The notes: generated by a model from the sequence alone, not told the origin. 64,000 bases of DNA from an uncultured Candidatus Saccharibacteria bacterium (GCA_964525295.1 CAZGEO010000001.1:150360-214359); one strand, 5' to 3'. Shown: positions 3 through 63,995, counted from the first letter of the stretch. Translations and numbers: made by a program.

Positions 3-1562
3 GAACTCGACAATGGAGAAACCTGGAAAACACCTATCGATATAAAAAAAGTTAGTTATCAACGTTTACCTTCAGCAACAAATCTAGATGAAGAGCTTCC
101 TGTACTTGAAGTGTATGATGAATCAACAACAGACGGAGGCTACAAATTCCTTCGTATTGGTCAAGAAGATGTGTATATAACCGGCGCCTATCTCTACGAA
201 ATAGTCTACTCGATGAAAAATGTGATTCGATTTTTCGATGATAGAGAAGAGTTGTATCAAAACATAAATGGCAATCTTTCTGAGCTTGCAACTTTGAGTG
301 TTTCTGCCGAAATCTCTCCTAAACGTGAAACAACGAATTTGGCCTGTTTCACAGGAAGTGCCGGATCAACCGCTTCTGATTGCTCGATTAATGTCGAAAA
401 TTCGGGCAATGTTTTTTCACGTTCCACAAAACCATTTACAACGCACGAAGGATTAACCGTAGGTATAGCGTTTCCTAAGGGAACTTTTACCGGTCCATCA
501 GCGCTTGAAAAACTGCTTTGGCAATTACTCATTTGGCTACCTGTACTCTTTATCATTCCACTCTTTTACTACGCATTCACGACATGGAGTAAATTCGGCA
601 AAGACAAACCGATGACAGCCATACCTCCAGTATTTTTGGTACCAAAAGAATTACAAAATCAATCATTAAGTATCCTAAAGTATCTTGAGAAAATGAATAC
701 TTCTGATACGCCTTTTTTGGCAGAATTAATCAGATTAGCCGAAGCTGGCTTTCTCACCATCAATTTTGAAAACAAAAAATTCTCTTTAACTATATCACCT
801 GAACAAAAACAGAAACTTGAAGTTCATCTTGCGACCCAGCCTGATTATATTCAAAAACTTGTGATGACTTTCACAAGAAATTTGAGTGAATACACCGAGC
901 TCAATACGTTAAAATCAGTCTACGACGACATCCAACGAATCAATGATGCTGCGAAAGAAGAGTTCGAAAAATCGACACTTATCGAAAAAACTTCAGTTCG
1001 CAAACGAACAACATTAATTGTTCTCATGACATTACTCTTTATAGCAGCTGGCGTATCTTTCTTTGTTGTTATTTCACTTGAAGAAGCAGCTCTACTTACC
1101 TGGCCACTTTCACTAGGAATTTCTGGTATCATTTTTACGATTGCACAAAGTGGAATGCTTAAAAGAACTCCAGCAGGAGACACATTATTGCTTGAGTTAC
1201 TTGGGTTGCGAAAATATATTGCAACAGCAGAAGTCGAACGACTTGCTTTCTTCAATGACCCCGCAAAAATGATTGCGCATTTTGAAGAGTTGTTGCCGTA
1301 CGCAATTGTTTTTGGGCTTGAAAAGAAATGGGCTGCAGTATTCACCCCAATTTTAGAGCAAATGCAGTATGAGCCAACCTGGTACACCGGCAACGCACCT
1401 GTTTATCATGCATTAAACAGCACTTTCTATAACATGAGTTCGGTATTCGCAAGTACTGCTGCAACTCTGGCAACACCACCAAAATCGAGTAGTGGCGGAT
1501 TTAGCGGGGGTGGTGGGTTCAGTGGCGGGGGAAGTGGTGGTGGTGGTACGGGATCTTGGTAG
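3..1562 (+). CDS. DUF2207-like predicted membrane protein. It is 5'-partial, with the reading frame open to the window edge. It has an extracellular N-domain, TM helices, an LGLRKYI motif and a C-terminal Gly-rich tail (GGFSGGGGFSGGGSGGGGTGSW).
   Basis: The frame stays open upstream of the GTG at 111 all the way to nt 3. Hydrophobic segments are LIWLPVLFIIPLFYYAF and LIVLMTLLFIAAGVSFFVVISL. The glycine-rich C-terminus is typical of the DUF2207 family. The family call is from memory, not a search. Confidence 0.5.
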   Translation, partial: ELDNGETWKTPIDIKKVSYQRLPSATNLDEELPVLEVYDESTTDGGYKFLRIGQEDVYITGAYLYEIVYSMKNVIRFFDDREELYQNINGNLSELATLSVSAEISPKRETTNLACFTGSAGSTASDCSINVENSGNVFSRSTKPFTTHEGLTVGIAFPKGTFTGPSALEKLLWQLLIWLPVLFIIPLFYYAFTTWSKFGKDKPMTAIPPVFLVPKELQNQSLSILKYLEKMNTSDTPFLAELIRLAEAGFLTINFENKKFSLTISPEQKQKLEVHLATQPDYIQKLVMTFTRNLSEYTELNTLKSVYDDIQRINDAAKEEFEKSTLIEKTSVRKRTTLIVLMTLLFIAAGVSFFVVISLEEAALLTWPLSLGISGIIFTIAQSGMLKRTPAGDTLLLELLGLRKYIATAEVERLAFFNDPAKMIAHFEELLPYAIVFGLEKKWAAVFTPILEQMQYEPTWYTGNAPVYHALNSTFYNMSSVFASTAATLATPPKSSSGGFSGGGGFSGGGSGGGGTGSW

Positions 1563-1606: not shown

Positions 1607-2359
1607 ATGTACTGCCATCGTAGAGTAAAAGCTTTCACCTTATTCGAATTACTCATCGTTTTGGCGATTGTTGGTGGAGCAATGCTTTTTACCACAAATT
1701 TTACTGCACGTATCCGAGAAACCTTTGTTGCCCAACAATATGTTAAAACAATTCTTCAACAAAGTCGTACAGCACGAAGAAAATCGATGCTTATCACTAG
1801 AAATTCAAATGACACAGGGTGGGTTCACGGAATTGGTATGCAGCTCAAAAAGAATCAAAATGGCTGGCAACTCTCGTTGATTAAGGCACTCGGCAATGAA
1901 AGTCAAAATATCTTTTACCGTTCCTATCCAACAGAAGTTTCGCAACTTAGATTTGAAGAGGTTGACGCTGCTTTCCGGCAATATCTACCCGAAGGAGTAC
2001 AGCTAAGTATATCCGCACAAAACGTTACCGGCTCATTGCAAGCACGTTGCCTGCGCGACGGTACCGAATTTCTCTTGCTATTCGAATCCATTAATGGAAA
2101 ATTACACGCGTATTGCTATAGCCAAGCTACTGCAGGTAGCTACGTGGATATTACTGCCGATGAAGCAGCTTCAGGAGAAGGTTCACAAAATAAACAAATT
2201 GAAATTTCTTTAATTTACCCAAATCAAGGGAAGCATCAATCGCGTGTCTTAATATCACAAAATGGCGACATCAGCGTACAAAATGATAACATTGTCAAAG
2301 AAGAAGAACCCGTTGATGAAGAAGAAGGTGAGGAAGGAGGTGAAAATGAAGGAGAATAA
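1607..2359 (+). CDS. Type IV pilin-like protein, minor or pseudopilin 1. It has a prepilin N-terminus and an acidic Glu-rich C-terminal tail.
   Basis: N-terminus MYCHRRVKA|FTLFELLIVLAIVGG has a class III signal: F at +1, E at +5 and a hydrophobic helix. Ala is at -1 instead of Gly. C-terminus is EEEPVDEEEGEEGGENEGE. Confidence 0.7.
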   Translation: MYCHRRVKAFTLFELLIVLAIVGGAMLFTTNFTARIRETFVAQQYVKTILQQSRTARRKSMLITRNSNDTGWVHGIGMQLKKNQNGWQLSLIKALGNESQNIFYRSYPTEVSQLRFEEVDAAFRQYLPEGVQLSISAQNVTGSLQARCLRDGTEFLLLFESINGKLHAYCYSQATAGSYVDITADEAASGEGSQNKQIEISLIYPNQGKHQSRVLISQNGDISVQNDNIVKEEEPVDEEEGEEGGENEGE

Positions 2360-2954
2360 TAAAAAAATTGTACGAGCAATTGCTATGACTTTAGTGGAAG
2401 TGCTTGTTGCGCTTGCAATTATTTCATTTGTCTTCTCATCATTAACACAAATGACCTTTGACGGGCTAAAACGCACTAAAAAACTCGAGTTACAAGACAA
2501 AATGAGAAATTATGCAACTGAAGCAGTTCAAATCATTTACAACGCAAAAAACGTAAATTGGCAGGGTAGTGGTGGATTCACTAAAATGCTTCCTCCTGTT
2601 ACCGCCGGAATTATCCCACAGGTGTATGTGAACTACGATGACTTCGAAGGCACAAGACTTCTTGAACTTTCACCAGCCGATTGTAGTTACGACGCTAAGC
2701 GTAAGGTTATTGTTGGTGCTGATTGTGCCAAAGTTATCCCACCAGAAACGCTCGAAAGAAACATGATCTTTGGAAGAGTAATTCAACGACTTGATAATGA
2801 TATTATCGACACAGGCGAAGAACCGTTAAGCGATACCGTTAACGATGCGGAAATCAGCATTATTGTCGCTTGCATTGATGATATGTGTGATCCCTCTGAA
2901 TTCGCTCCATTTATTCTAAATTTTAAAGTTTTCCGTACCGGTGCAGCACAATAA
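2346..2954 (+). CDS. Type IV pilin-like protein, minor or pseudopilin 2.
   Basis: ATG at 2346 is preceded by the Shine-Dalgarno-like AGGAGGTG at 2332-2339. N-terminus MKENNKKIVRAIA|MTLVEVLVALAIISF has E at +5. The longer track ORF from 2262 lacks an RBS and overlaps the upstream gene. Confidence 0.7.
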   Translation: MKENNKKIVRAIAMTLVEVLVALAIISFVFSSLTQMTFDGLKRTKKLELQDKMRNYATEAVQIIYNAKNVNWQGSGGFTKMLPPVTAGIIPQVYVNYDDFEGTRLLELSPADCSYDAKRKVIVGADCAKVIPPETLERNMIFGRVIQRLDNDIIDTGEEPLSDTVNDAEISIIVACIDDMCDPSEFAPFILNFKVFRTGAAQ

Positions 2955-3495
2955 TAAAACGATAAAAGTCCTAGATGCCTTTACTTTGGTCGAAACACTC
3001 ATTGCGATGTCGCTCATCGCGGTATTATTTGTTCTCATCATGCAAGCCCTTAGTTCAATGCTCTTGGGGTCATTACTTATAGAGGCAAGAACAGCGGTAA
3101 GAACAGAAGGAGAATTTGTTGGCGAATATCTCAAGCTGCGCATTAAAAATGCTGACCCAGCATCACTCGTTTGTGATGATGAATCAGATTTGAAACCTAT
3201 TACCTGGCAAACCAAAGGTTCAAGTGATACGCATACCTTCTATTTTGACGAACCTAATGATCGCTTTTGCCTTGACAACGACAGTACTCAAGCTAGCGCC
3301 TGCGATACCGTTCTAACATATAATGATGTTATTGTTCACGATGTTATAGTTAACTGTGAAAGCACCATTGATGACATTACCGGTCAACAGTTTACCACCG
3401 TTAATCTTATGTTTGACCTTGACTCGACGCAGAAATATGGAGATGGACCAGCAGTTGCAAATGTATCACGTTTCATAAACATCGCTATCAGATAA
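2941..3495 (+). CDS. Type IV pilin-like protein, minor or pseudopilin 3.
   Basis: GTG start. N-terminus ...KVLDA|FTLVETLIAMSLIAVLFVLI fits the prepilin motif with E at +5. Start overlaps the preceding gene by 14 nt, suggesting translational coupling. Confidence 0.6.
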   Translation: MQHNNKTIKVLDAFTLVETLIAMSLIAVLFVLIMQALSSMLLGSLLIEARTAVRTEGEFVGEYLKLRIKNADPASLVCDDESDLKPITWQTKGSSDTHTFYFDEPNDRFCLDNDSTQASACDTVLTYNDVIVHDVIVNCESTIDDITGQQFTTVNLMFDLDSTQKYGDGPAVANVSRFINIAIR

Positions 3496-3596
3496 ATATT
3501 CTTACGCTTTGAGTCCACGTCGTTGATATTGCTTTCACCCACGCACACACAAGCATGTGACTCTAGCTTGAGAATAGATATTCAAAAAATCTATGA

Positions 3597-4346
3597 TTAC
3601 AGTGTCAGTAATGACATAAACACCAGCGGAAGAAAGAGTGTAAGAAGTGGGATTTTCTGTCCACTTCGTAGTCGTTTTTGCATCAATAAGTAGAACATAG
3701 CCATAACTGCGACTATTGCAAGAATAATTGTCATTCTGGTGAACCCTAGAAGCCCAACAGCAACAGAAAAGGCGATTATATCAGCGCTTCCAAATAGCGC
3801 ACCAAATTCAATATTTTCATCGCGCTTAAGCAGTTTAACCAGCCCAACAGAAAGTACAATAATACCTAGAATAAGTAGAATATCGAGATAGAATATAGTG
3901 CTATTGCCCATCAAGTACCACAATAAAACAAGACTCAACTGCCCAACAACTAGCCAAGAGACGGGAACAGAAAAGCGCTTTGAATCTTCGTACATCAGTA
4001 AACTCGTACATGCAAAAGCGAACAAACCAACAGCAAAAATCAAATGATTTATTCCAAAAGCGAGGTATAAAACAAATAACACCCAAGCCCATGTTGCTGA
4101 AAAGAGTAGTTCAAATCGTAAATAATCGAGTGAAACTTTTTTACCGCAGTAGATGCACTTTTGCTTCACAAGAAAGACACCAATGAAAGGCAAAAGTGCA
4201 TACCATGGCAACTCTTGTTTACAAGCATCACACTGCGATCTGCCAGCAATAGATTTCAAAAATGAACCACGATCAACAATAAGCTGCACATACTCTGACA
4301 TAATTATACCGACAACAAGCCAGAATATGAGCAGTATTTGATCCAT
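3597..4346 (-). CDS. pilD: Type IV prepilin peptidase, A24 family (PilD/ComC-like).
   Basis: N-terminal tetra-Cys zinc motif CDACKQ...CIYCGK. Polytopic membrane protein with Asp-containing motifs (GSADIIAF). Length 249 aa. Sits next to the pilin genes. Confidence 0.85.
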   Translation of the reverse strand: MDQILLIFWLVVGIIMSEYVQLIVDRGSFLKSIAGRSQCDACKQELPWYALLPFIGVFLVKQKCIYCGKKVSLDYLRFELLFSATWAWVLFVLYLAFGINHLIFAVGLFAFACTSLLMYEDSKRFSVPVSWLVVGQLSLVLLWYLMGNSTIFYLDILLILGIIVLSVGLVKLLKRDENIEFGALFGSADIIAFSVAVGLLGFTRMTIILAIVAVMAMFYLLMQKRLRSGQKIPLLTLFLPLVFMSLLTL

Positions 4347-4352
4347 AATTCG

Positions 4353-4952
4353 TTATTGAGCTTTTTGCATTCCTGCACAAGCGATTGCTGATTGATCTGA
4401 ACCAACACAGTAACAATCTTTGTTCTTTGAAGCATCATTTCTTTCGACATTACCACCACGTGGGTTCTCGGTTACAGCACATACGGTTGCTCGCAATGCT
4501 GCACCATCAGTAGTTCGGCGAATGTAGTAATAGCGAATTTCGTTATAGTTATTCTCTTTTGAGAATGGTCCCCATGAGAATTCACCTTCAAAATATTCTG
4601 CAAGACCACCTTTACCTCGAACATTAATTAACGAAGAAGTGTCTGAGGTAAATGCTGTATTACAAGCTTTAACATTAGCCAAATCGACAGTTGTCTTTGT
4701 TGAATCAACGCCATCACCGACTGGATCACCAGCACCGAATTTACCAGAGTTATAAATACACCCTGGATATGTTTGGAAGTCAGCATAATATGCTGTTAAA
4801 GCAGTTTGAATCTGATTAACAATGTTTCTTCGCTGAGTGTCTCGACCTTGGCGTAGTGCGAATGTTAAGCCGGCGTATGCGCCAACTGACAAAAAGGCAA
4901 TAATTGCCATAACTACCATAAGCTCGACGAGGGTAAAACCTTTAACTTTCAT
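4353..4952 (-). CDS. pilA: Type IV major pilin (PilA-like).
   Basis: MKVKG|FTLVELMVVMAIIAFL is a canonical prepilin signal with G at -1, F at +1 and E at +5. Length 199 aa. C-terminal Cys pairs (CYCVG...CAG) suggest a disulfide-bonded loop. Confidence 0.8.
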   Translation of the reverse strand: MKVKGFTLVELMVVMAIIAFLSVGAYAGLTFALRQGRDTQRRNIVNQIQTALTAYYADFQTYPGCIYNSGKFGAGDPVGDGVDSTKTTVDLANVKACNTAFTSDTSSLINVRGKGGLAEYFEGEFSWGPFSKENNYNEIRYYYIRRTTDGAALRATVCAVTENPRGGNVERNDASKNKDCYCVGSDQSAIACAGMQKAQ

Positions 4953-5020
4953 TATTGAGCAGATCAGTTTATATACCAGAAAGATACCTCAATCGCATAA
5001 TTGTGTCAATGACGTTTCAA

Positions 5021-6244
5021 TTACTGAATTGATTGCGTCAACTGGAACATTGGATAGTAAATTGACGCGACAATTACTGCAACAATTCCACCCATAACGA
5101 CCAAAAGTATTGGTTCAAGTAATGATGATAATGCCGACGTTGCAGCCCTAATTTCTAGATCAAAATACCTCGCAATTTTTTGCAATACTTTATCAAGTTG
5201 ACCAGTTTCTTGCCCCACATTAACCATATATCCAACGATCGTAGGGAAATGCTGACTTTGTAGTAATGGAACTGCTATCGAAACACCACGACGAACCTGA
5301 TCACGCATATTGGCGACTTCATCTTTGAACCATAAGTTACTTAACGTTGCTTCAGTCAATTCTAACGTCTGAATAATTGGCACACCGCTACTGATAAGAA
5401 GATACAACACGCGACTAAACGTTGCTACTTGTATCTTCACCATAAGCACCCCAATAATTGGAATGCTAATGAGTAACTTGTCCCAAACACGGCGACCTTC
5501 AGGCGTCGAAATGAAATATCTACCACCAACAATTGCACCAACCACGATCAGTATAACAATATACCAGTAATTAATAAGAAATTGACTCAATCCAATGACC
5601 ATCTTTGTTATTAACGGTAGTTCAGTATTGAATGATTTGAAAGCTTCCTGCATTTGCGGAACAACTACCGTAATCAGGAAAATGACTACACCAAGCATAA
5701 CAACTGTCAAAACCGCAGGATAGGCAAGTGCAGAAACCACTTTGGAGGTTAATGCTGAACGTTGTTCATATTCACGAGCTAATTTTCTAAAAATTCTCCC
5801 TAAATTACCGCTTTGCTCACCGGCTTTAATCAAATTTATTGCAATTGAATCAAACACATCTGGATATTTTGCAAGCGCATCTGATAACGGAACACCCGAC
5901 GAGACAGTTTTCAATACTTCTTTCAAAACGCGCTGAAAGCGCGGATTTTGAGTTTGTGTACTCAATACTTCAAGAGCTCGAGTAATTGATAACCCCGCAT
6001 TAATCATAATTGAGAACTGCTTTAAGAAAATCATTTTTTCTTTAAGCGGAATTCCCCCAATATTAATCTCTTTTAATCGCTCAATCGACAAAAATCTAGA
6101 AACCTCATCAACTGAAAGTGGCGATAAATTACGCTGAAACAATTGCTGCACAACTTCTTCTTTTGTTGCTGCTTGCAATGATCCCTTAACCTTACCACCA
6201 TCTTTATTCAATGCAACGTATTCGTATAATTTTTTGTCTTCCAT
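5021..6244 (-). CDS. pilC: Type IV pilus assembly platform protein PilC (GspF family).
   Basis: 407 aa with two GspF-like repeats and three TM segments. Conserved blocks include GxPLSxAL and QxxETGxL. Lies between pilA and pilT. Confidence 0.9.
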   Translation of the reverse strand: MEDKKLYEYVALNKDGGKVKGSLQAATKEEVVQQLFQRNLSPLSVDEVSRFLSIERLKEINIGGIPLKEKMIFLKQFSIMINAGLSITRALEVLSTQTQNPRFQRVLKEVLKTVSSGVPLSDALAKYPDVFDSIAINLIKAGEQSGNLGRIFRKLAREYEQRSALTSKVVSALAYPAVLTVVMLGVVIFLITVVVPQMQEAFKSFNTELPLITKMVIGLSQFLINYWYIVILIVVGAIVGGRYFISTPEGRRVWDKLLISIPIIGVLMVKIQVATFSRVLYLLISSGVPIIQTLELTEATLSNLWFKDEVANMRDQVRRGVSIAVPLLQSQHFPTIVGYMVNVGQETGQLDKVLQKIARYFDLEIRAATSALSSLLEPILLVVMGGIVAVIVASIYYPMFQLTQSIQ

Positions 6245-7785
6245 TACACCAATTCCTCAAGTAATCTGGCCATTTCAGTCGCATCTAGGGCATAACGCAA
6301 AGCGTCTTCTTGCTGAATTAACCCTTCTTTGTATAGCCCAAGTAATGATCGTTCAAGTGTAATCATGCCGAGATCTAGACTCGTTCTGATGATATTATCG
6401 ATTTGATAAATCTTGTTTTCTCGAATTAAATTCCTAATTGCTGGAGTCATTAACATGATTTCTAAGGCAGCACGTCTACCACCGCCTTTTACAGGAATTA
6501 ATCGTTGCGCAACAACGGCTTCTAGAACATCTGCCAATTCAGAACGAATCTCATCTTGCTGAACATCTGGGTACATATTTACAATTCTTTGTATTGTCTG
6601 AGCAGCGCTATTTGTGTGTAAAGTTGCAAATACCAAGTGACCAGTTTCAGCGACAGTAATCGCCGAAGAAATTGTTTCAAGATCACGCATTTCTCCGACC
6701 AAAACTACATCTGGATCTTCACGAAGTGCAGAACGAAGTGCACCTTTCCAGGAGTGAGTGTCATCACCGAGTTCTCGCTGTGAAACAAGTGCCTTTTGTT
6801 GAGGAAAGACATATTCTACTGGATCTTCAATAGTCAGAATATGTTTTGGATGTTTCATGTTAATTTCTTGAATTACTGCAGCCAAAGAAGTTGACTTACC
6901 ATGGCCTGTTGGACCAGTAACAAGAACCAATCCTTGTTCAAGATCAGTAAATTTATGAAACAAATCTGGAAGTTTCAATTCATCAATTGTTCTAATTCTC
7001 GTAGGAATTAAACGGAAAGCTGCAGACAAATAACCACGCTGCCAGTATGCATTAATACGAAATCGACCAGCATCTTTATGTTGATATGCTAAATCTACCT
7101 CGCGATTTACTTCAAGTTGCTCCTTTTTGTCATCTGGCAAAACTGAATAAATCAATTCTTTTGCTATTTGTGGCGTAATAATTACTGAACCAACAGTAAC
7201 TAAAGATCCATCGATACGAACCATTGGCAAATAGCCAACGACTAAATGGAGATCAGAGGCATCTTGCGCAATAACCAAATCTAATAATTGCTTAATTTCA
7301 TATGGACCACTTACCGAAATATTTCCTACAGCTGGTTCTTGTGGCTGCGCTGGCGAAATTGGCGTAGCAACAACAGGCGAACCTAAATCTGGCTGTGGGG
7401 CCACGGGTTGCGTAACCTCAGGAAAGGTAACTGCTGGCGTTACTACCGCAGGTGTTGACGATACAGGAACATCACTCGAAGAAACTGGAGGCTGAGTTAC
7501 TGTAGGTTGACTTGCAACAGCATTCTCTGTAACCGTCTCGGTTACCTGTGTTGATTGCACAACATTTACTGGTTGTTCTGATACAGTCGGAATCGGCGCT
7601 GCTGGTGATTGCCCAGTCATTTGTTTAAGCATTGCAAGTGGATCTAAAAAACCTGGTTTTGCGACATCTTGTGCTGACGCATTCATAGGCGTAGATGAAA
7701 CCGGTGGCAAACCAGAACTTGTTTGCGGTAACGGAGGTAATTGAGTGTTTGGCGGTTGTATCGGAGTTCCTGTGTTTAAATCCAT
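6244..7785 (-). CDS. pilT: PilT-type twitching-motility/retraction ATPase with an N-terminal low-complexity extension of about 170 aa.
   Basis: Core matches PilT: ASDLHL, Walker A GPTGHGKST, DPVEY, an Asp box, and HLVFATLHTNSAAQTIQRIV. The N-terminal ~170 aa are rich in Pro/Thr/Ser/Val/Gln with no in-frame stop. Confidence 0.85.
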   Translation of the reverse strand: MDLNTGTPIQPPNTQLPPLPQTSSGLPPVSSTPMNASAQDVAKPGFLDPLAMLKQMTGQSPAAPIPTVSEQPVNVVQSTQVTETVTENAVASQPTVTQPPVSSSDVPVSSTPAVVTPAVTFPEVTQPVAPQPDLGSPVVATPISPAQPQEPAVGNISVSGPYEIKQLLDLVIAQDASDLHLVVGYLPMVRIDGSLVTVGSVIITPQIAKELIYSVLPDDKKEQLEVNREVDLAYQHKDAGRFRINAYWQRGYLSAAFRLIPTRIRTIDELKLPDLFHKFTDLEQGLVLVTGPTGHGKSTSLAAVIQEINMKHPKHILTIEDPVEYVFPQQKALVSQRELGDDTHSWKGALRSALREDPDVVLVGEMRDLETISSAITVAETGHLVFATLHTNSAAQTIQRIVNMYPDVQQDEIRSELADVLEAVVAQRLIPVKGGGRRAALEIMLMTPAIRNLIRENKIYQIDNIIRTSLDLGMITLERSLLGLYKEGLIQQEDALRYALDATEMARLLEELV

Positions 7786-7796
7786 AGTTATTAAAA

Positions 7797-9656
7797 TTAC
7801 GTTAATTCACTATCGCTCTTTGCGACACGAGCGACTTCTTCTATTGTTGTAATACCTTCAATTGCTTTAAGATAACCATCTTGCACGATAGTAATCATAC
7901 CTTCTTCTTCGGCTAATTTTTCGAGTGCATCATATTCTGCATTGCGCATTATGCCAGAAGCCATTTTATCGTTGATCATCGCGACTTCAAAGATTGCCAT
8001 ACGACCGCGATATCCTGTTCCACCACACTTTGAACAACCCGTTCCATGATACAAATATATCTGCTGCTGACCATCTGCTGTTAAGTCGGGAGCTTTAACT
8101 GGTGGAGCAAATTTATATTCTGGTTGATCTGGCGACAATACTGGTCGTTTCGCTAAAGTTTCTAAATAGCGTGTTACATCAAAGTTTGCAATGCCACCAA
8201 GAACTTTCGTAACATCATCAACTAATTCTTTTGGTGCAGGTTCAGCAACTCGACAATGTGGACAGATAGTTCGCACCAATCGTTGAGCTACGACACACTT
8301 AACAGTAGAGGCAACCAAGAATGGCTCAATTCCCATGTCAATTAAACGCACAATAGATGAAACCGCACCATTTGTGTGCAATGTTGAAAGAACCAAGTGC
8401 CCCGTAAGTGCAGCTCGAATTGCAAGACGAGCTGTTTCTTCATCACGTACTTCTCCTAGGTACACAATATTCGGATCTTGACGTAGAACTGCGCGCAGTA
8501 CTGTAGCAAAATCGAGGCCAATATCATGATTAACTTGAACTTGAGTAATACCAGGAATTCTAATTTCAACAGGATCTTCAATAGAGATTACGTTGACCTT
8601 TGGATCGTTCAATCTGTTTACAGTACTTGCCAATGTTCTCGTTTTACCACTACCTGTTGGACCGGTAACTAAAACAATTCCGTTAGTAACGCTAATACTC
8701 TCAACATATCGTTTATATGCAGAACCACGCAGGCCAGATTCTTCAAGCGGAGGAATTCCTGTAGTTCTTTCGAGCAAACGCATAACAAGCTTTTCACCGT
8801 ACAACGAAGGTAGAGTAGAGATACGTAAGTCAAACTTTCTTTCGGCGACCTTAATGAAAAGACGACCGTCTTGTGGCATTCTAGTTTCGTCGATTTTCAA
8901 ATTCGACATAATCTTCATTCTTGCAACGACTGGTGGCTGAAGTTCTTTCGGTAATGTCAATTTTTCAGTCATAACACCATCGATACGATAGCGTACGCGA
9001 ACTGATTTTTCTTGAGGTTCAACGTGAATATCTGAAGCACCTGCTTGTGCACCATAAACGAGAATAGAATTAACTATTTTAGCAACAGGTGCACCTTGTA
9101 GATTTTGTGAAACATCAGCAACATCTTCGGTCGAAATCTCAGTTTCCTGAACGCCGGTTTCTTGTTGATACGATGTAACTGCAGCTTGAACATCACCACT
9201 AATCAGATTGCCAAATCTAGTTGAAATATACGTTTGTACTTCTTGCGGAGAAGCCGTGTAAATCTCAACCTGTCGAGGTAAATATTTAACTTTCCAAAAT
9301 TGAATCGCATTCAAGTTGAATGGGTCAGCCATTACAACTTTAACTTTCGTATCGTTTACTTCAAAAGGAAACGCCTGCTGTTCTTTAAGAACATCTACGC
9401 TAACGCCATTTAGTAGTTCAGGGGCTGCCTGAATTGGAGATAAATCATCAATAAATTGAACGTTGTAAACGGCTGCCTTTGTCTTAAAAAGATCTTTTTC
9501 ATTGACTAACTTCTTTTCAAGAATTATCTGCAGTTCAGTCTTATTTTGCTGCGCACATTCGAGTTTAATTTGATCAGCAGTTTGTGCGGTAAGCAAGCCT
9601 CTTTCAACTAAAGCAGTAAGTAGGCGTGTATCAACACCAGTATAGGGCAATGGCAT
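7797..9656 (-). CDS. pilB: Type IV pilus assembly ATPase PilB (GspE family).
   Basis: 619 aa. Walker A is GPTGSGKT. GspE signature blocks present. Tetra-Cys zinc motif CPHCR...CSKCGGTG near the C-terminus. Confidence 0.9.
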   Translation of the reverse strand: MPLPYTGVDTRLLTALVERGLLTAQTADQIKLECAQQNKTELQIILEKKLVNEKDLFKTKAAVYNVQFIDDLSPIQAAPELLNGVSVDVLKEQQAFPFEVNDTKVKVVMADPFNLNAIQFWKVKYLPRQVEIYTASPQEVQTYISTRFGNLISGDVQAAVTSYQQETGVQETEISTEDVADVSQNLQGAPVAKIVNSILVYGAQAGASDIHVEPQEKSVRVRYRIDGVMTEKLTLPKELQPPVVARMKIMSNLKIDETRMPQDGRLFIKVAERKFDLRISTLPSLYGEKLVMRLLERTTGIPPLEESGLRGSAYKRYVESISVTNGIVLVTGPTGSGKTRTLASTVNRLNDPKVNVISIEDPVEIRIPGITQVQVNHDIGLDFATVLRAVLRQDPNIVYLGEVRDEETARLAIRAALTGHLVLSTLHTNGAVSSIVRLIDMGIEPFLVASTVKCVVAQRLVRTICPHCRVAEPAPKELVDDVTKVLGGIANFDVTRYLETLAKRPVLSPDQPEYKFAPPVKAPDLTADGQQQIYLYHGTGCSKCGGTGYRGRMAIFEVAMINDKMASGIMRNAEYDALEKLAEEEGMITIVQDGYLKAIEGITTIEEVARVAKSDSELT

Positions 9657-9714
9657 GTGTCAGTATAGCAAGTTGGGGGGAGCTTGGCAATGAGAACTTT
9701 GGTTCAACTCGATC

Positions 9715-10149: not shown

Positions 10150-12516
10150 ATGGCAAAATTCGAACTTTACAAAGGCCCATACAATCCTCAGGCAACAGAA
10201 AACGCTGTGCTTGATTTCTGGGCAAACAAACCTTACTTCAAACCTGAATATAACAGCATCACAAAAGCTGTTGATTCAACCGAAGAACTGAAAACGTATT
10301 TGAAAGAAAATCCTGACAAGAAATTCGTTATTGTTGACCCACCACCAAATGCATATGGACGACCACATCTTGGAAACATCTCTGGTTACGCCTATCAAGA
10401 CTTACTAGGAAGATTCAATAGAATGCAAGGCAAGAGAGTATTATTGTTTCCAGGTAAAGATCATGCAGGAATTCAGGGAGAAATCGTAGTTCTACGTGAA
10501 CACTTTAGACCACAAGGCAAGACAAAACAAACACTAGGTCGCGAAAAATTCTACGAGGAGACCTATGACTATTTCACCACAATGATGGCTGCAGCGCAGA
10601 AAGATGAGAAGAGAATCGGGCTTTCTGCCGACTTCGACCGAGATGTTTTTACCCTACATCCAGAAATTGTTGATAACGTTTTAACGACCTTCATTAAGCT
10701 TCATGAACAAGGCCAAGTTTACAAAGGGGTACGAATCGTAAACTGGTGCCCTTCATGTAAAACCGCATTGGCCGATATCGATACAGTCAAAAAAGAACGT
10801 GAATCAAGTATGTATTACCTTCGCTATCCTTTGAAAACGCCCGTTAACGGCAAAACCTTCATTACCGTTGCGACCTCTAGACCAGAAACAATGCTCGGTG
10901 ATACAGCAGTCGTTGTTAACCCAGAAGATGAACGATATACCGATTTACACGGTGCAATTGTTGTATTGCCATTAGTCAATCGCGAAATCCCAATCATTAC
11001 CGATCCGCAAGTCGATAAGGCTGTTGGAACTGGGTGCTTAAAACTTACCCCAGCGCACGCGACCGAAGATTACGAAATAATGTTACGTTGGAATGAACAC
11101 AGACCAAATGAACAAGTAGATTGGCTAAATGTTATAGATCCCGACGGAAAAATGTGTGGACCTATCGGTAAATACGTAGGAATGGCCACTGACGAAGCGA
11201 AAGTCGCAGTTCTAAACGATTTCATGGCACTCGATCTATTCGAGAAAGAAGAAAAAATAGAGCAGCGAACGCCAGCCTGTGAAAGATGCAAAACGATCAT
11301 TCAACCATTAATGTCGAGCCAGTGGTTTATAAAAATCGACGAATTACGAAAGCAAGGTATTGAAGCAGTACGTTCAGGCGAAGTTACCATTCATCCAAAA
11401 TATATGACTAAAAAGTATCTTCATTGGATGAGAAATCTTCGAGATTGGCCAATTTCTCGCTCACTCTGGTGGGGTTACAGATTCCCAGTTTGGTACAAAG
11501 GTGATCTAGAAACGACCTTTGGTGCAGATGGAAAAGTCATTGAAAAGATTGGTGGAGTAGAAGTAAAAGATTTTGCAGACGCAGTATCTCGAGGGCTTGC
11601 TCAAGTTAGTAAAACATCTCCAGGCGAAGGATGGATCCAAGATGAAAATGTGTTTGATACCTGGTTTAGTTCAGGGCAATGGCCATATGTAACTCTCGAA
11701 AAAGAGGGTTTACTTGATGTTATGTACCCAACCGATGTTATGGAAACAGGCTACGATATCCTTGAATTCTGGGTATCGCGAATGATCATGTTAGGATACT
11801 TCAGAACTGGGAAACATCCATTCAAAGATGTTTATCTTCACGGTTTGATCAAAGCAGCAGATGGACAGAAAATGAGTAAATCGAAAGGCAATGTTGTTAC
11901 CTTAGACGACTTAGTAGGAGAATATGGTGCCGATGCGATTAGAATGTTATACATCGTTGGTAACAAAGCAGGGGCTAGTTACCGTCTAGACAAAGAAAAA
12001 CTAAATGGCAATAGAAACTTCTTAAACAAAGTCTGGAACGCCTCACGATTCGTTTATTTCTCGATTAACGACCTCGAAAAGCCATGGGACCTAAAAGAAT
12101 CGGAGCTAACCTTTACTGAAGAAGACAAAAAAATGCTACAGGAAGCAAGAGATATGGCAGCAACAGTAGCAAAAAAGATCAAGACCTTTAGATTTGGGTT
12201 AGTAGCCGTAGACTTAATTCAATCGTTCTGGCATTCCTTCTGCGATACCTACTTAGAACAGGTTAAAGGAAGATTGTACACAAAAGACCGTGAGGGAAAT
12301 CCGATCAATACCTCGGTTGAAGCTATCGCTTCACGAAAGGCCGCACAATGGACTTTATGGACCGTACTTGGTATGTATTTGAAGATGTTACATCCCTATA
12401 TTCCATTCATTACAGAATATCTCTGGGAATCATATCCAAAAGCATTTGAAGAGAGCGATACCATAATGTATGCCAAATGGCCTGAATCTGCCCAAGTTGA
12501 AACAAATAGTAAATGA
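10150..12516 (+). CDS. valS: Valyl-tRNA synthetase, class I.
   Basis: HIGH-type motif PPNAYGRPHLGNI. KMSKS motif. ValRS-specific VNWCPSCKTALADIDTV and SLWWGYRFPVWY. Length 788 aa, a compact form. Confidence 0.9.
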   Translation: MAKFELYKGPYNPQATENAVLDFWANKPYFKPEYNSITKAVDSTEELKTYLKENPDKKFVIVDPPPNAYGRPHLGNISGYAYQDLLGRFNRMQGKRVLLFPGKDHAGIQGEIVVLREHFRPQGKTKQTLGREKFYEETYDYFTTMMAAAQKDEKRIGLSADFDRDVFTLHPEIVDNVLTTFIKLHEQGQVYKGVRIVNWCPSCKTALADIDTVKKERESSMYYLRYPLKTPVNGKTFITVATSRPETMLGDTAVVVNPEDERYTDLHGAIVVLPLVNREIPIITDPQVDKAVGTGCLKLTPAHATEDYEIMLRWNEHRPNEQVDWLNVIDPDGKMCGPIGKYVGMATDEAKVAVLNDFMALDLFEKEEKIEQRTPACERCKTIIQPLMSSQWFIKIDELRKQGIEAVRSGEVTIHPKYMTKKYLHWMRNLRDWPISRSLWWGYRFPVWYKGDLETTFGADGKVIEKIGGVEVKDFADAVSRGLAQVSKTSPGEGWIQDENVFDTWFSSGQWPYVTLEKEGLLDVMYPTDVMETGYDILEFWVSRMIMLGYFRTGKHPFKDVYLHGLIKAADGQKMSKSKGNVVTLDDLVGEYGADAIRMLYIVGNKAGASYRLDKEKLNGNRNFLNKVWNASRFVYFSINDLEKPWDLKESELTFTEEDKKMLQEARDMAATVAKKIKTFRFGLVAVDLIQSFWHSFCDTYLEQVKGRLYTKDREGNPINTSVEAIASRKAAQWTLWTVLGMYLKMLHPYIPFITEYLWESYPKAFEESDTIMYAKWPESAQVETNSK

Positions 12517-13231: not shown

Positions 13232-15406
13232 CTACTTCTGCTCAGTAACAAAATCGGACTTCACGAAGCTCGCCATGTTGTGTACTTTTTCAGGCATTGA
13301 CAATCCAATTTCAGATCGATTTTCATTGCCTCCACAAGCTACAGTAGGGGAATAAATATTGTCTAAAGTTGGAATCTCGCAGAATGCTTCATAACCATAT
13401 GACGTAACATCAGCGTTATAGATATTATCAGCGCCAACGACAGCATCAGGCAAATATGACAAAATCAAATTGCTTGATACAGCAACTAAACGACCATCTC
13501 GAAGTCCAATAGTTAATGAAACATATGCAGTATCTGATGTTGTAGTTTCCTTTAATGTCTTCAACAACGAGCGTCGGTTAATAGTAACTTCACGCCCACG
13601 ACTCACATAGCGACTACCTGTTGCAAATTGAGAAACATCGCCTTCATATCCCGAATCAACGTAAAGTTTTGCAGAAACTGAAGTGCCTGAGGCAAAAGCC
13701 TCAATATCATTACGCTTCATAACTGGATCAAATACAGAACGAGCTAACGCAAAATCATTGGAGAGAACCCCTTGGAAGAACGTTCGCTCAATATTCGAAA
13801 CCCGTTCTTTCAGGTATTTGGTTGTTTCTTTGGTAAATTCATCTGTGTTTTTATCAGAAAATGAAAGTAATTGCTCACCTGCAAAGTTAAATCCAAAGAT
13901 TCTCGTAAACAACGATTCTTCTCGAGCTTTCTGATAATTATCACGCTCATTTAGTGATTGGAGTTGAATAATCTTTGCGCCATCAACAATACCATCTTTC
14001 TCAAGTGTATTTGCGAACGCAAAAGTAAGTGGTTGGGCTTCTTTAGAAATTGCCAATAACTGTGAGACATCAACTTTTTTAGTTCGTACATAATAACTCT
14101 GCAATTCACGAACAACATAGCTTGGCCAAGAATAGAGTGAAATTGTTGCAAGCAAGCCGAGTCCGGTAAATAATGCGAGAACTGAATAATCACCAATTGC
14201 TAAGGAATTCATAAACGAGAAGCCAGGCTTCGCTACCTTCAATACAGCTACAATTTCATAGGCAAGCAAGACCAACCCGACGAATAATGCCCCGATCAAG
14301 ACATACGTTCGCAACACCGATGGACCATACGTTGTCATATACACATTCATTCTCAAAAAGAGTGAGTAGAGCATAACTACTAACAATGAAACGATCCCTG
14401 TATTGGTTAAGAAGTTTGCAATTCTAGCGATTTGCCACTCGGTACGCATTCGATTCATAGTCCACGCCAAAATTGGATAAGACAAGATGCCAACAACAAG
14501 TAATTCGATGAAACCACGGTGAACATATTCAGCAAAGGTGTACTTTGCAAGAATTTGAGTCATATCTTGCCCAAAGAGATATTTTGTCTGAACCCAAACA
14601 TACAAAGCGAATAAAAAGAAAATTGGGAGAGTTATAACTAAAGGAAACAATGCATCACTTCTTTTCACCGTAATAAAACTAAATGCTTTTTTCCATTGCT
14701 CTTTCACTTTTTCGGTATTAAGCCCTAGCATTGGAATAAATGAGAAATAACCAACAAGGGTTAAGAGCCCTGCAATAATGAAAGATACGATGACGCCGCC
14801 AACAGTTCGAGTCATTACCTCAGAAAGTTTGAGAGACTCCAAAATCTCTTGAATTCTCTTTTTAAATTCCGGGTCAGCATCAGAAAGTAAATTCGAAAAC
14901 AGAATAAAGATGAATAACGATACAGCAGCATATAAGACGAATTTCAACAACAATTTCACAACATTTGCATTGCCTTTAAACAAGTCAAGGGCTGATTTCA
15001 CTGTCTCCATAATCCAGTTACCGACAAAAGATAACGGGGTAATAAGGAATGCAAAAATATCAATAATATGTACTGCCCCAGGAAGAGCAACTAGTACCGA
15101 CAGCAAGGCAGCCAATGCGACATGCGCGACTACCAAAGCAACAAGCACTAAATCGTCCATTCGATATAAATAAGGCACCGAGAGAATTACATATGCACCA
15201 GAAAGTGCTTTAATTAATCCATCACTTACCTGAGTCACGTCTAATTCCTGACGTTTTTCATTTTTTTGCCCAAAATACCATATACTCGCGAGTAATGAAT
15301 TAAAGAAAAGAAAAGTTCCTAAACCAATGGGAATACCAATTACCCCAAAAGCGAATAGAAATCCTAACGCAAACACAATTATCCAGAAGATATCTGACCT
15401 TTGCAT
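13232..15406 (-). CDS. Large polytopic membrane protein of unknown function. At least 10 TM helices over about 470 aa, then a C-terminal soluble domain of about 250 aa.
   Basis: Long uninterrupted ORF of 724 aa. Many hydrophobic helices. No motif I can assign. Confidence 0.5.
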   Translation of the reverse strand: MQRSDIFWIIVFALGFLFAFGVIGIPIGLGTFLFFNSLLASIWYFGQKNEKRQELDVTQVSDGLIKALSGAYVILSVPYLYRMDDLVLVALVVAHVALAALLSVLVALPGAVHIIDIFAFLITPLSFVGNWIMETVKSALDLFKGNANVVKLLLKFVLYAAVSLFIFILFSNLLSDADPEFKKRIQEILESLKLSEVMTRTVGGVIVSFIIAGLLTLVGYFSFIPMLGLNTEKVKEQWKKAFSFITVKRSDALFPLVITLPIFFLFALYVWVQTKYLFGQDMTQILAKYTFAEYVHRGFIELLVVGILSYPILAWTMNRMRTEWQIARIANFLTNTGIVSLLVVMLYSLFLRMNVYMTTYGPSVLRTYVLIGALFVGLVLLAYEIVAVLKVAKPGFSFMNSLAIGDYSVLALFTGLGLLATISLYSWPSYVVRELQSYYVRTKKVDVSQLLAISKEAQPLTFAFANTLEKDGIVDGAKIIQLQSLNERDNYQKAREESLFTRIFGFNFAGEQLLSFSDKNTDEFTKETTKYLKERVSNIERTFFQGVLSNDFALARSVFDPVMKRNDIEAFASGTSVSAKLYVDSGYEGDVSQFATGSRYVSRGREVTINRRSLLKTLKETTTSDTAYVSLTIGLRDGRLVAVSSNLILSYLPDAVVGADNIYNADVTSYGYEAFCEIPTLDNIYSPTVACGGNENRSEIGLSMPEKVHNMASFVKSDFVTEQK

Positions 15407-62171: not shown

Positions 62172-63995
62172 CTACTCAGCACAGAAAACGTGACCGATTG
62201 TACCACAAACGAGATCTACCGTTCTTTCGTAACCAAGAATTGGTCTCATCGAATCAAGCACGTTTGCATCATAGAGAATAGTTTCTGCTGGGAATAACTT
62301 ATTGTTATCAAGCAAAAGATCTCTTTGGAATGCAGGTGCTGTATATGAGTCTGAGAAGATAAAACCATTGATTACCAAACGATCTCGAACAAGGCCAGTT
62401 CTCAACGATTGCGAAGGTGAGAAGAGTAGTTGCCCACCCTGTGAGACGACAATGCTCGCCTGGAAGTTATCGATCTTTGGATCTCCAGAGAACGTAGCTG
62501 AAGGCATATCAGCAACCGTCAAAATTGCCCCGGTATTAACCACAAAGAGACAACTACTATCTGGCGTTGCTTTTGTGACTTGCCCAGAAATTGTTACTAC
62601 TGCAGCTGAGTCGATGAAGATAATCGAATTCCCTCGGCAGACTAAGTCATTACTGATTGTTACTTTTCCGGTAATCGTGCCTACCTTAAACTTCGTTTCA
62701 TTGCTTAGTTCTGCAAGTGATTCAGAAATTTGACCACAGTTTCCTAACAATTGACAGTTTCTTGCAACGAGCCCTTTCAACTGGGTATACCAATTTATCT
62801 GATTTCCCTTCGATTGTCCGTAAAGGTTATACCCTGAAGTTGAAGTAGAGGTTCGATAATAATCGACCCTTTGAGCGTTAGTTGCATACCCCAGGGGGTA
62901 TGTGTGAGTCGTATCACTTGGGAAAGTTCTTCCACCTAATAATCCTGCATTATTACCCGCGGTAACTAGGAAGCCAGAAACCGCCGAGGAAGTCATGACA
63001 AAAGTTGAGCTTTGCGTATTTCTGCTGGCCGATGGTAAGGTCATATTGAAAGCATTCCCAGTTGATGCTGAGTTACTGTAAGCAGAGCCATTAGCAACTT
63101 GCAACCACCCCATGCCGAATCGATACATACCAGTTGCGCCGTAATTAACACAAGTTGAAGTTTTCGTTGAGTTAATTGTTTGGGCACAACAGGCGTTTCC
63201 TGCTTTATCATAGACACACATTCCGACTGCGATGCCATCGCCTTGTAGCACTCTGTGACCTGAATAACTAAAGGCTGCGGTACTTGTTGAAACCAAGTCA
63301 TCTTTACCATCCCATGACGGATAAACCGGTTCTGGTGTTGGCGTTGGAGTAGGTGTAGGCTCAGGTGTTGGTTCTGGAGTCGCTGTTGGTGTAGGAGTTT
63401 CCGATGGAGTTCCCGTAATCTCACCTGAAACAGATGGTGTTGGTGATGGCGTTTCGGTTGGCTCTGGTGTTGGACTTGGGGTTGGAGTAGGCGTTGGAGC
63501 TGGAATATTTTGCTTTGTTAAGAAGAATCTATCTCCTGTAATCGCCTCTGGAGTATCGTAATGTTCACGAAGCATGTACCTTGTGGTAACACCACCAATT
63601 CCTGACACAAGATCAGAAATTGTACCTTGCATGATTACGGTGTTGTTCGAAGCTGATGGAGCAGTAATATTCAAATCGATTGCCGGAGGGTTAGTATCGT
63701 AAATAATTGGTAAGACTCCCGAAGCATTGGATACTGGTTTCCAATATTTATTTCCATATGCAGTGCCACCGACTTTATCTTGTGCACCAACATATAACGT
63801 GTAACGACCATTCATCATTCCTGCACCAGCTTCATTTTTGTCATTCATAAAGATCTTGAAAGTCGCACGAACAGAATTACTTGTACCAATCTGTGTTACA
63901 TCTTCACGTGAAATACAAGCTGCACAGTTTGCAGGACAATCATCTGATTTTGGAATTACATACGTTGTATTCGAACTCGTTGGCATACAAAGCAT
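62172..63995 (-). CDS. Large secreted/surface protein with a Pro-Thr-rich ([10 protein letters not shown]) linker. Probably 5'-partial, with the start possibly beyond the window edge.
   Basis: Long ORF on the minus strand. Linker is ..[48 protein letters not shown].. Many Cys in the N-terminal part. C-terminal beta-rich region. Confidence 0.5.

Follow-up and report, generated by a model that had tools for sequence, protein, structure and literature searches.

We describe a gene for a type IV pilus retraction ATPase, pilT, in a 64 000-nucleotide stretch of DNA from an uncultured bacterium labelled Candidatus Saccharibacteria (GCA_964525295.1, CAZGEO010000001.1, positions 150360–214359; this whole stretch is referred to as the window, and positions are counted from its first nucleotide). 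By the names that homologues of the protein carry, the organism belongs to Candidatus Dojkabacteria (WS6), of the phylum Patescibacteria or candidate phyla radiation (CPR). The gene was delimited by an open reading frame (ORF) call and family models at 6244–7785 on the minus strand (stop codon 6244–6246) and encodes 513 residues. Residues 1–163 (7297–7785, minus strand) form an N-terminal extension rich in Pro, Val, Thr, Ser, Gln and Ala, with neither a family match nor a transmembrane-like segment. Residues 164–513 (6247–7296, minus strand) form a canonical PilT ATPase core, as defined by the TIGR01420 model, by matches to solved structures and by AlphaFold. The gene is the second of a pilB-pilT-pilC operon. 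The first gene, pilB (7797–9656, minus strand), encodes the 619-residue extension ATPase (T2SSE and MshEN domains; TIGR02538/02533), and its stop codon is separated from the pilT ATG by 11 nucleotides (7786–7796, minus strand) that contain no Shine–Dalgarno site. The platform protein gene pilC (5021–6244, minus strand; 407 residues, assigned by family matches) starts with an ATG that shares one nucleotide with the pilT stop codon. An identical 513-residue protein is public as P0001 and is encoded on two contigs, L035 and L036, which are independent assemblies from other samples; the gene is also contained in the sequencing runs SRR11582162 and SRR32934939.

Judged by its sequence, the core is a complete canonical PilT retraction ATPase and has every family feature that can be looked for in this way. 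TIGR01420 (PilT/PilU family) matched residues 164–503 with 446.6 bits against a cutoff of 319.1, covering model positions 2–342 of 343. The catalytic motifs, namely Walker A (GPTGHGKS, residues 291–298, read from the sequence at 6892–6915 on the minus strand), the Walker B/Asp box (DVVLVGEMRD, residues 359–368) and the His box (HLVFATLHT, residues 383–391), are invariant or nearly so across 90 homologues; within Walker A every residue except His295 is invariant in these 90, and all eight are invariant in 20 close orthologues. The sequence AIRNLIRE, a motif typical of PilT, was read at residues 449–456 (6418–6441, minus strand) and is kept in the alignments. Among solved structures the nearest matches are bona fide PilTs, with E values of 1e-95 to 1e-99 (4e-99 for Aquifex PilT, PDB entry 2EWV), and every solved PilT aligns from query residue 160–165. 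In the AlphaFold model the predicted local distance difference test score (pLDDT) of the core is mostly above 90. A preliminary description of this DNA had reported a canonical PilT core behind a long low-complexity extension. Both parts were confirmed by the match of TIGR01420 at 164–503 and by the lack of any match to residues 1–163, but the boundary given there (position 7273, residue 171) lies slightly too far into the core, since the model starts at residue 164. Because this start and the rise of AlphaFold confidence from about residue 152 do not coincide, the apparently unstructured tail is taken as about 150 residues and the whole N-terminal addition as about 163.

The extension is composed of 19% Pro, 13.5% Val, 11% Thr, 11% Ser, 9% Gln and 9% Ala, with two Lys and no Arg. 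Neither Pfam nor NCBIfam yielded a family for residues 1–163. The maximum hydropathy (Kyte–Doolittle, 19-residue window) is 0.95, too low for a membrane span in any part of the tail. An N1-type domain (MshEN or T2SSE_N) was not matched in residues 1–163, whereas the neighbouring PilB has MshEN; a PilB/GspE-type ATPase with a folded N1 domain was ruled out on this basis. The AlphaFold prediction was made for the monomer with a 90-sequence alignment, and a shallower run agreed on the secondary structure. In this model residues 1–150 have pLDDT values of 42–61 (about 45 for residues 1–10), the sole predicted helix of the tail spans residues 49–57 with a local pLDDT peak of 67, and residues 151–160 reach 85 and include a short strand at 155–156. 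The safest description of the tail is that it is non-globular and probably an extended proline-rich chain. A Pro/Thr/Ser/Gln-rich segment of this kind occurs in only two of the 54 ORFs of the window, and the tail is therefore not a habit of the whole proteome. The other such ORF (62172–63995, minus strand) encodes 607 residues without a Pfam match and has its stretch at residues 143–249.

Several lines of evidence bear on whether the extension is translated. The preliminary description had noted that no stop codon separates the extension from the core, and there are indeed no stops in the 163 codons of this frame, compared with 3–12 in the five other frames; only four of 20 000 shuffles of the tail stretch were free of stops. 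No ORF of at least 50 residues covers the stretch in any other frame, and Tandem Repeats Finder detected no DNA tandem repeat in 7200–7800. At six orthologous loci pilB ends 11–20 nucleotides upstream of the ATG that opens the long frame (11–14 nucleotides in five orthologues and 20 in the more distant L006), and the encoded protein starts with MDLNTG in five of the six and with MDGNAP in L006. Over the first nine codons the amino acids are kept among orthologues, and the nucleotide differences are mainly synonymous and at third positions. In a close pair of orthologues (L037 and L001), the tail has a ratio of nonsynonymous to synonymous substitution rates (dN/dS) of 0.14 and the core one of 0.01; a value of about 1 is expected for noncoding DNA. 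Between the window and the locus L038 the proportions of nonsynonymous and synonymous differences in the tail (pN and pS) are 0.42 and 0.74, respectively. These comparisons indicate that the tail is translated from the ATG at 7785 and is under purifying selection, and a dN/dS of 0.14 points to constraint beyond mere composition.

The signals around the start codon are less informative. A Shine–Dalgarno-like motif is absent at 42 of the 43 ORF starts in the window, and a ribosome-binding-site test cannot therefore decide the start of pilT. A TATAAT-like box that ends 4–10 nucleotides before the start codon was found at 14 of these 43 starts, compared with 4% of random positions. The best promoter-like site of the region (TTGCCA-17-TATACT with a TG; 9662–9690, minus strand) has a −10 box that ends five nucleotides before the pilB ATG. 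These patterns suggest that leaderless mRNAs are widespread in this Dojkabacteria genome, with examples at the starts at 9656 (minus strand) and at 10150, 24320, 44253, 50481 and 57692 (plus strand), and that the pilB-pilT-pilC transcript is itself leaderless. Translation of pilT is then probably coupled to that of pilB on a leaderless operon transcript, given the missing Shine–Dalgarno site, the −10-like boxes and the position of the promoter-like site just before pilB.

In-frame ATG, GTG or TTG codons occur at codons 1, 26, 34, 52, 56, 76 and 128, and the next is codon 170. The internal ATGs are codons 34, 52 and 56; between codon 56 and the core the sole canonical starts are the GTGs at 76 and 128, and with a start at TTG170 the first core helix would lose half of its length. 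Of the two checks that the preliminary description had proposed near the core, the search for internal starts gave no usable start codon there, and the ribosome-binding-site comparison could not discriminate. We considered whether the gene could yield two isoforms, the long product and a canonical short PilT from an internal start, with the short form as the working motor. The in-frame codons ATG34, ATG52, ATG56, GTG76 and GTG128 are compatible with such an arrangement, as is a Met that lies six residues upstream of the model start in three orthologues and is used by NCBI as their start. Against it, the same position is Val158 here (GTA, 7312–7314) and Ile or Val in two other orthologues. Because of this substitution within a conserved segment (P[VI]GNI..xGxY), the Met chosen by NCBI is best regarded as an ordinary internal residue at a hydrophobic position and not as a conserved start. 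Furthermore, a product from any internal start in the window gene would still have 36 or more extra residues in front of the core, and more than 100 if one of the ATGs were used; no promoter-like site was found within the tail region on the coding strand. Two isoforms are accordingly improbable.

The distribution of the tail was examined at the level of loci and of proteins. The locus survey comprised 29 scorable loci from representative genomes, six of Dojkabacteria type and 23 others (Moranii-, Parcu- and Paceibacteria, other phyla and some records labelled Saccharibacteria). At the six Dojkabacteria-type loci 136–217 codons are open upstream of the core and the first start is an ATG. At the others a stop codon lies 4–28 codons upstream of the core in 21 of 23, with outliers at 72 and 51, and no gene was found between pilB and pilT in the other Patescibacteria surveyed. 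Among the best 120 protein matches the tail length ranges from about 20 to 504 residues. Dereplication of tails of at least 40 residues, with two further loci added, gave a set of 84 with lengths of 47–680 residues (median 175). On these sequences, a long N-terminal tail on PilT is clade-wide in Dojkabacteria. The preliminary description had called the extension atypical of PilT, which holds in comparison with characterized PilTs but not within this clade, where the extension is the rule. It had also proposed an alignment of orthologues and had reasoned that starts near the ASDLHL region, at an internal start codon, would mark the extension as an untranslated leader; the orthologues instead keep both the long open frame with its extension and the ATG that follows pilB.

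Seven protein matches lack a tail, and all of them derive from NCBI annotation. Comparison of six of these records with their loci showed each to be identical to the C-terminal part of a long ORF. At L033 (CP129478.1, 1050–2500) a stretch of 1.45 kb has no called gene, although 454 open and conserved codons precede the start that was annotated; at L034 (DAOODH010000007.1, 450–2500) the gene-less stretch is 2.05 kb, with 677 such codons upstream and an ATA as the start in the annotation. An internal Met was likewise taken as the PilT start by NCBI at L001, L002, L004 and L006. The tail is thus dropped whenever an internal Met is available, and once at an ATA, which amounts to a systematic annotation error. 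Since such calls leave 1.4–2.0 kb of seemingly empty DNA in very compact genomes, the tail is hidden from surveys that rely on these records.

These data also dispose of the view that the extension is an artefact, whether an untranslated leader, a wrong start call, an assembly or frameshift error or an erroneous fusion with the upstream gene. It could draw on the NCBI starts at the core in several orthologues and on the missing Shine–Dalgarno site before the ATG at 7785. The latter, however, is normal for this genome, and the former leave 1.4–2.0 kb gene-less and in one case use an ATA start. The frame is open for up to 677 codons in relatives and shows the signs of translation given above, the same gene with an identical product is present in three assemblies, and in other Patescibacteria pilT follows pilB with no gene in between. 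An artefact is contradicted by the data and is hardly credible.

The record L003 (CAZCKT010000060.1), titled 'uncultured Candidatus Saccharibacteria', encodes a PilT with a Dojkabacteria-type tail and an MDLNTG start at 64% identity, and its Saccharibacteria label is probably a placeholder. Four further PilT-like proteins (P0029–P0032, one named Myxococcota) have 660–730 residues, of which about 310–375 are extra; three of the proteins have them at the C-terminus and one at the N-terminus, which represents another non-canonical PilT architecture. When the tail by itself was searched exhaustively with HMMER against 1.84 billion representatives, one spurious match was obtained, to an unrelated Ig-repeat protein with 'VTQPQ' repeats. 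At this level of sequence comparison the tail is without detectable homologues beyond the close orthologues.

Within the tail three islands are kept against a hypervariable background: an N-terminal peptide, a short helix and a junction segment. The N-terminal island (residues 1–26, MDLNTGTPIQPPNTQLPPLPQTSSGL; 7708–7785, minus strand) was defined in an alignment of 20 orthologues, in which Met1, Asp2, Asn4, Pro8 and Pro17 are each at least 90% conserved; the common N-terminus of the close orthologues reads MDLNTGTPIQxPSxQxPPxPQQS. In the same place more distant relatives have a short motif, [FILVM]x[YF]P (for example DFTYP, FSYP or IQYP), usually at positions 10–16. This motif (motif 1) is present in 40 of the 84 tails, compared with 3.2 expected from shuffles; relative to the remainder of the tails it is enriched 30-fold in the first 70 residues, and it almost always lies within the first 20. 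It was found on PilT only, and on no other protein of the fetched Dojkabacteria loci. The second island (residues 46–57, FLDPLAMLKQMT; 7615–7650, minus strand) is the short helix, recognized in the alignment of close orthologues and predicted as a helix by AlphaFold. Its pattern in close orthologues is F[LVIM]D[PT]L..LK (FLDPLAMLKQM in the protein described here), and other subclades have a related element, SLADLAKKLSxWKDDF. The two flavours together (motif 2) were detected in 20–23 of the 84 tails, compared with approximately none in shuffles. The junction segment (residues 152–163, AVGNISVSGPYE; 7297–7332, minus strand) follows the pattern P[VI]GNI[PSE][MVI]xG[PAS]Y[ED] in the alignment and, as modelled by AlphaFold, seems to pack on the core.

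The preliminary description had suggested that the extension might mediate tethering or regulation of retraction, and the conserved motifs lend this some plausibility. Docking motifs typically appear as short conserved peptides within variable spacers. On this ground we tentatively favour, as quite possible, a reading in which the extension is a flexible docking or tethering arm, or a regulatory tail, on an otherwise canonical retraction ATPase, and in which its peptides dock on a partner or on PilT itself. Each subunit of the PilT hexamer would project one flexible arm, giving six per hexamer. Through its conserved peptides the arm would bind either PilT or something at the base of the pilus, be it PilC, PilB, a PilM-like protein or the membrane, and such docking could keep the retraction motor near the machine or gate its engagement with PilC. 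Such a role would parallel that of the folded N1 domains of PilB/GspE and the role suspected for the disordered region of CpaF.

Several observations weigh against this reading. The charge–hydropathy plot places the tail on the folded side (H of 0.485 against a boundary of 0.433), and it does not call the tail disordered because the tail is nearly uncharged and rich in Val. The protein described here has PIQPP in place of IQYP and lacks the aromatic residue of motif 1, and the equation of the two N-terminal peptides depends on our interpretation of PIQNP as a derived form of IQYP. Likewise, the two flavours of motif 2 were merged into one model by us. The helix is short and its hydrophobic moment is not outstanding; it is not the top-scoring 11-mer, and for the same reason a membrane-targeting amphipathic helix as in FtsA or MinD was reduced to a mere possibility. 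No gene for the candidate partners PilM, PilN or PilO was found among the roughly 34 of the 54 ORFs in the 64 kb window that were scanned. Finally, the extreme variation in length could mean that bulk properties alone matter.

This last point leads to an alternative in which the tail is translated but acts through its bulk properties, as an entropic bristle or spacer or by promoting the clustering or condensation of PilT, with no specific partner. The length range of 47–680 residues and a hypervariable sequence that nevertheless keeps its Pro/Ser/Thr/Gln/Asn-rich composition are what would be expected of such a tail; so are the exhaustive search that returned no homologues, the absence of motif 1 from about half of the tails and the failure to detect motif 2 in about three quarters. 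However, the islands exceed the shuffled expectation by far and are position-specific, the N-terminal nine residues are under clear constraint at the amino-acid level, and the dN/dS of 0.14 implies that more than composition is constrained. We therefore regard a pure bulk role as unlikely.

A second alternative is autoinhibition, in which a conserved peptide would fold onto the PilT hexamer, at the pore or at the PilC-binding face, and keep the motor inactive; a signal or partner would then release the motor by displacing the peptide. The predicted packing of the junction segment (152–163) on the core is in keeping with this idea, and there are precedents: the C-terminal disordered region of Myxococcus xanthus PilU has been proposed to be regulatory or autoinhibitory (PMC13584747), and truncations of CpaF show a trend to higher ATPase activity (PMC12019362). 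On the other hand, the pLDDT values of about 67 for the helix (49–57) and about 45 for residues 1–10 do not suggest stable intramolecular docking, and autoinhibition appears doubtful.

The docking reading can be taken further, to a built-in disordered adaptor arm. The N-terminal peptide and the helix would dock on PilC, a PilM-like protein or PilB, PilT would stay tethered, the motors would be exchanged by competition between short motifs and not by diffusion, and arm length (47–680 residues) would tune retraction. This extended version is speculative, and we give it rather little credence. If true, it would be a mode of PilT recruitment that has not been described in any type IV pilus system, in cells that are ultrasmall and host-dependent. 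In any case, a clade whose PilT has a long tail and two conserved docking-type peptides provides a natural entry point to the recruitment of PilT and its swap with PilB, and the motifs are short enough for motor recruitment in minimal pilus machines to be tested at the level of peptides.

The operon belongs to a set of type IV pilus genes that spans 1607–9656 and includes, besides pilB, pilT and pilC, a pilin gene (4353–4952, the next after pilC), a prepilin peptidase gene (3597–4346) and three pilin-like genes on the plus strand, divergent from the pilB-pilT-pilC operon. Membrane proteins of unknown function are encoded on both sides of the cluster (DUF2207, 111–1562, plus strand; DUF4153, 13232–15406, minus strand). 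In PilB (7797–9656, minus strand) the family models match in two stretches; judged by eye, an insert in the region of residues ~480–560 seems to separate the two Cys pairs of the zinc-binding region (...LSPDQPEYKFAPPVKAPDLTADGQQQ...). The pilT gene on contig L036, from a second strain, differs from that in the window at 13 nucleotides. All of these differences are synonymous and fall within a single 235-nucleotide stretch of the core (nucleotides 1053–1287 of the L036 gene, approximately 6499–6733 of the window, minus strand), and there are none across the remaining 1300 nucleotides. From the sequence, this cluster looks like a recombination patch.

In the canonical system the pore of PilT is where PilC binds, and PilT and PilB replace one another (PMC6858323, PMC13584747). 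Type IV pili are among the few conserved surface machines of Patescibacteria, are essential where tested and are thought to serve host contact, motility and DNA uptake (PMC6744442, PMC11623550). A study of Saccharibacteria described the PilT there as similar to PilT from outside the Patescibacteria. No description of an N-terminally extended PilT in Patescibacteria was found in the searchable literature, where absence is not proof.

The PilT structures from Aquifex aeolicus (2EWV/2GSZ), Geobacter metallireducens (6OJX) and Pseudomonas aeruginosa (3JVV) resemble residues 164–513 from end to end. The protein described here shares the Walker A, Walker B, His box and AIRNLIRE motifs with canonical PilTs and is encoded in a pilB-pilT-pilC operon, but unlike it none of these solved PilTs has an N-terminal tail. 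The related ATPases PilB and GspE carry N1 domains (MshEN or T2SSE_N) that link the ATPase to PilM or GspL or bind c-di-GMP, and to our knowledge PilT normally has no N1-like appendage. In both cases an N-terminal addition to the same ATPase fold is joined by a flexible linker and has a docking or regulatory role, proposed in the case of the tail, so that the analogy is one of position and proposed role. N1 domains are folded, whereas residues 1–163 are without a domain match and are predicted to be unstructured.

Two known systems come closer. CpaF, the Tad pilus ATPase of Caulobacter crescentus (class II), has an N-terminal disordered region of about 79 residues, truncation of which lowers pilus dynamics and leaves ATPase activity intact (PMC12019362). 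As here, a PilT/VirB11-like hexameric pilus motor carries in one clade an N-terminal region, disordered in CpaF and probably non-globular here; that of CpaF is absent in most orthologues and is suspected of a role in protein interaction (PMC12019362, PMC11300603). CpaF, however, belongs to another subfamily and is bifunctional, and its region of about 79 residues is followed by a three-helix bundle, whereas tails of 47–680 residues are found here on a dedicated retraction ATPase. The TadA model TIGR03819 scored 40.3 bits against the protein (cutoff 373), and no helical bundle was predicted by AlphaFold between tail and core. A CpaF/TadA class II identity was ruled out, because the score is far below the cutoff and the three-helix bundle is missing. 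In M. xanthus, PilU (MXAN_1995) has a C-terminal disordered region of about 112 residues, for which a regulatory role has been proposed, and MXAN_6705 has a longer disordered N-terminus (PMC13584747). These too are PilT-family ATPases with clade-specific terminal regions, disordered in M. xanthus and probably non-globular here, and a proposed role in regulation or partner binding. They are accessory paralogues beside a compact main PilT, whereas the tail described here is on the PilT of the core pilB-pilT-pilC operon; conserved short motifs are reported here for the PilT tails and not for the Myxococcus paralogues, and no sequence similarity was found between them. Terminal disordered regions on PilT/VirB11-like motors are thus already known, and what is new is that, across a whole CPR class, the PilT encoded in the operon has a tail, with an extreme range of lengths and with conserved motifs.

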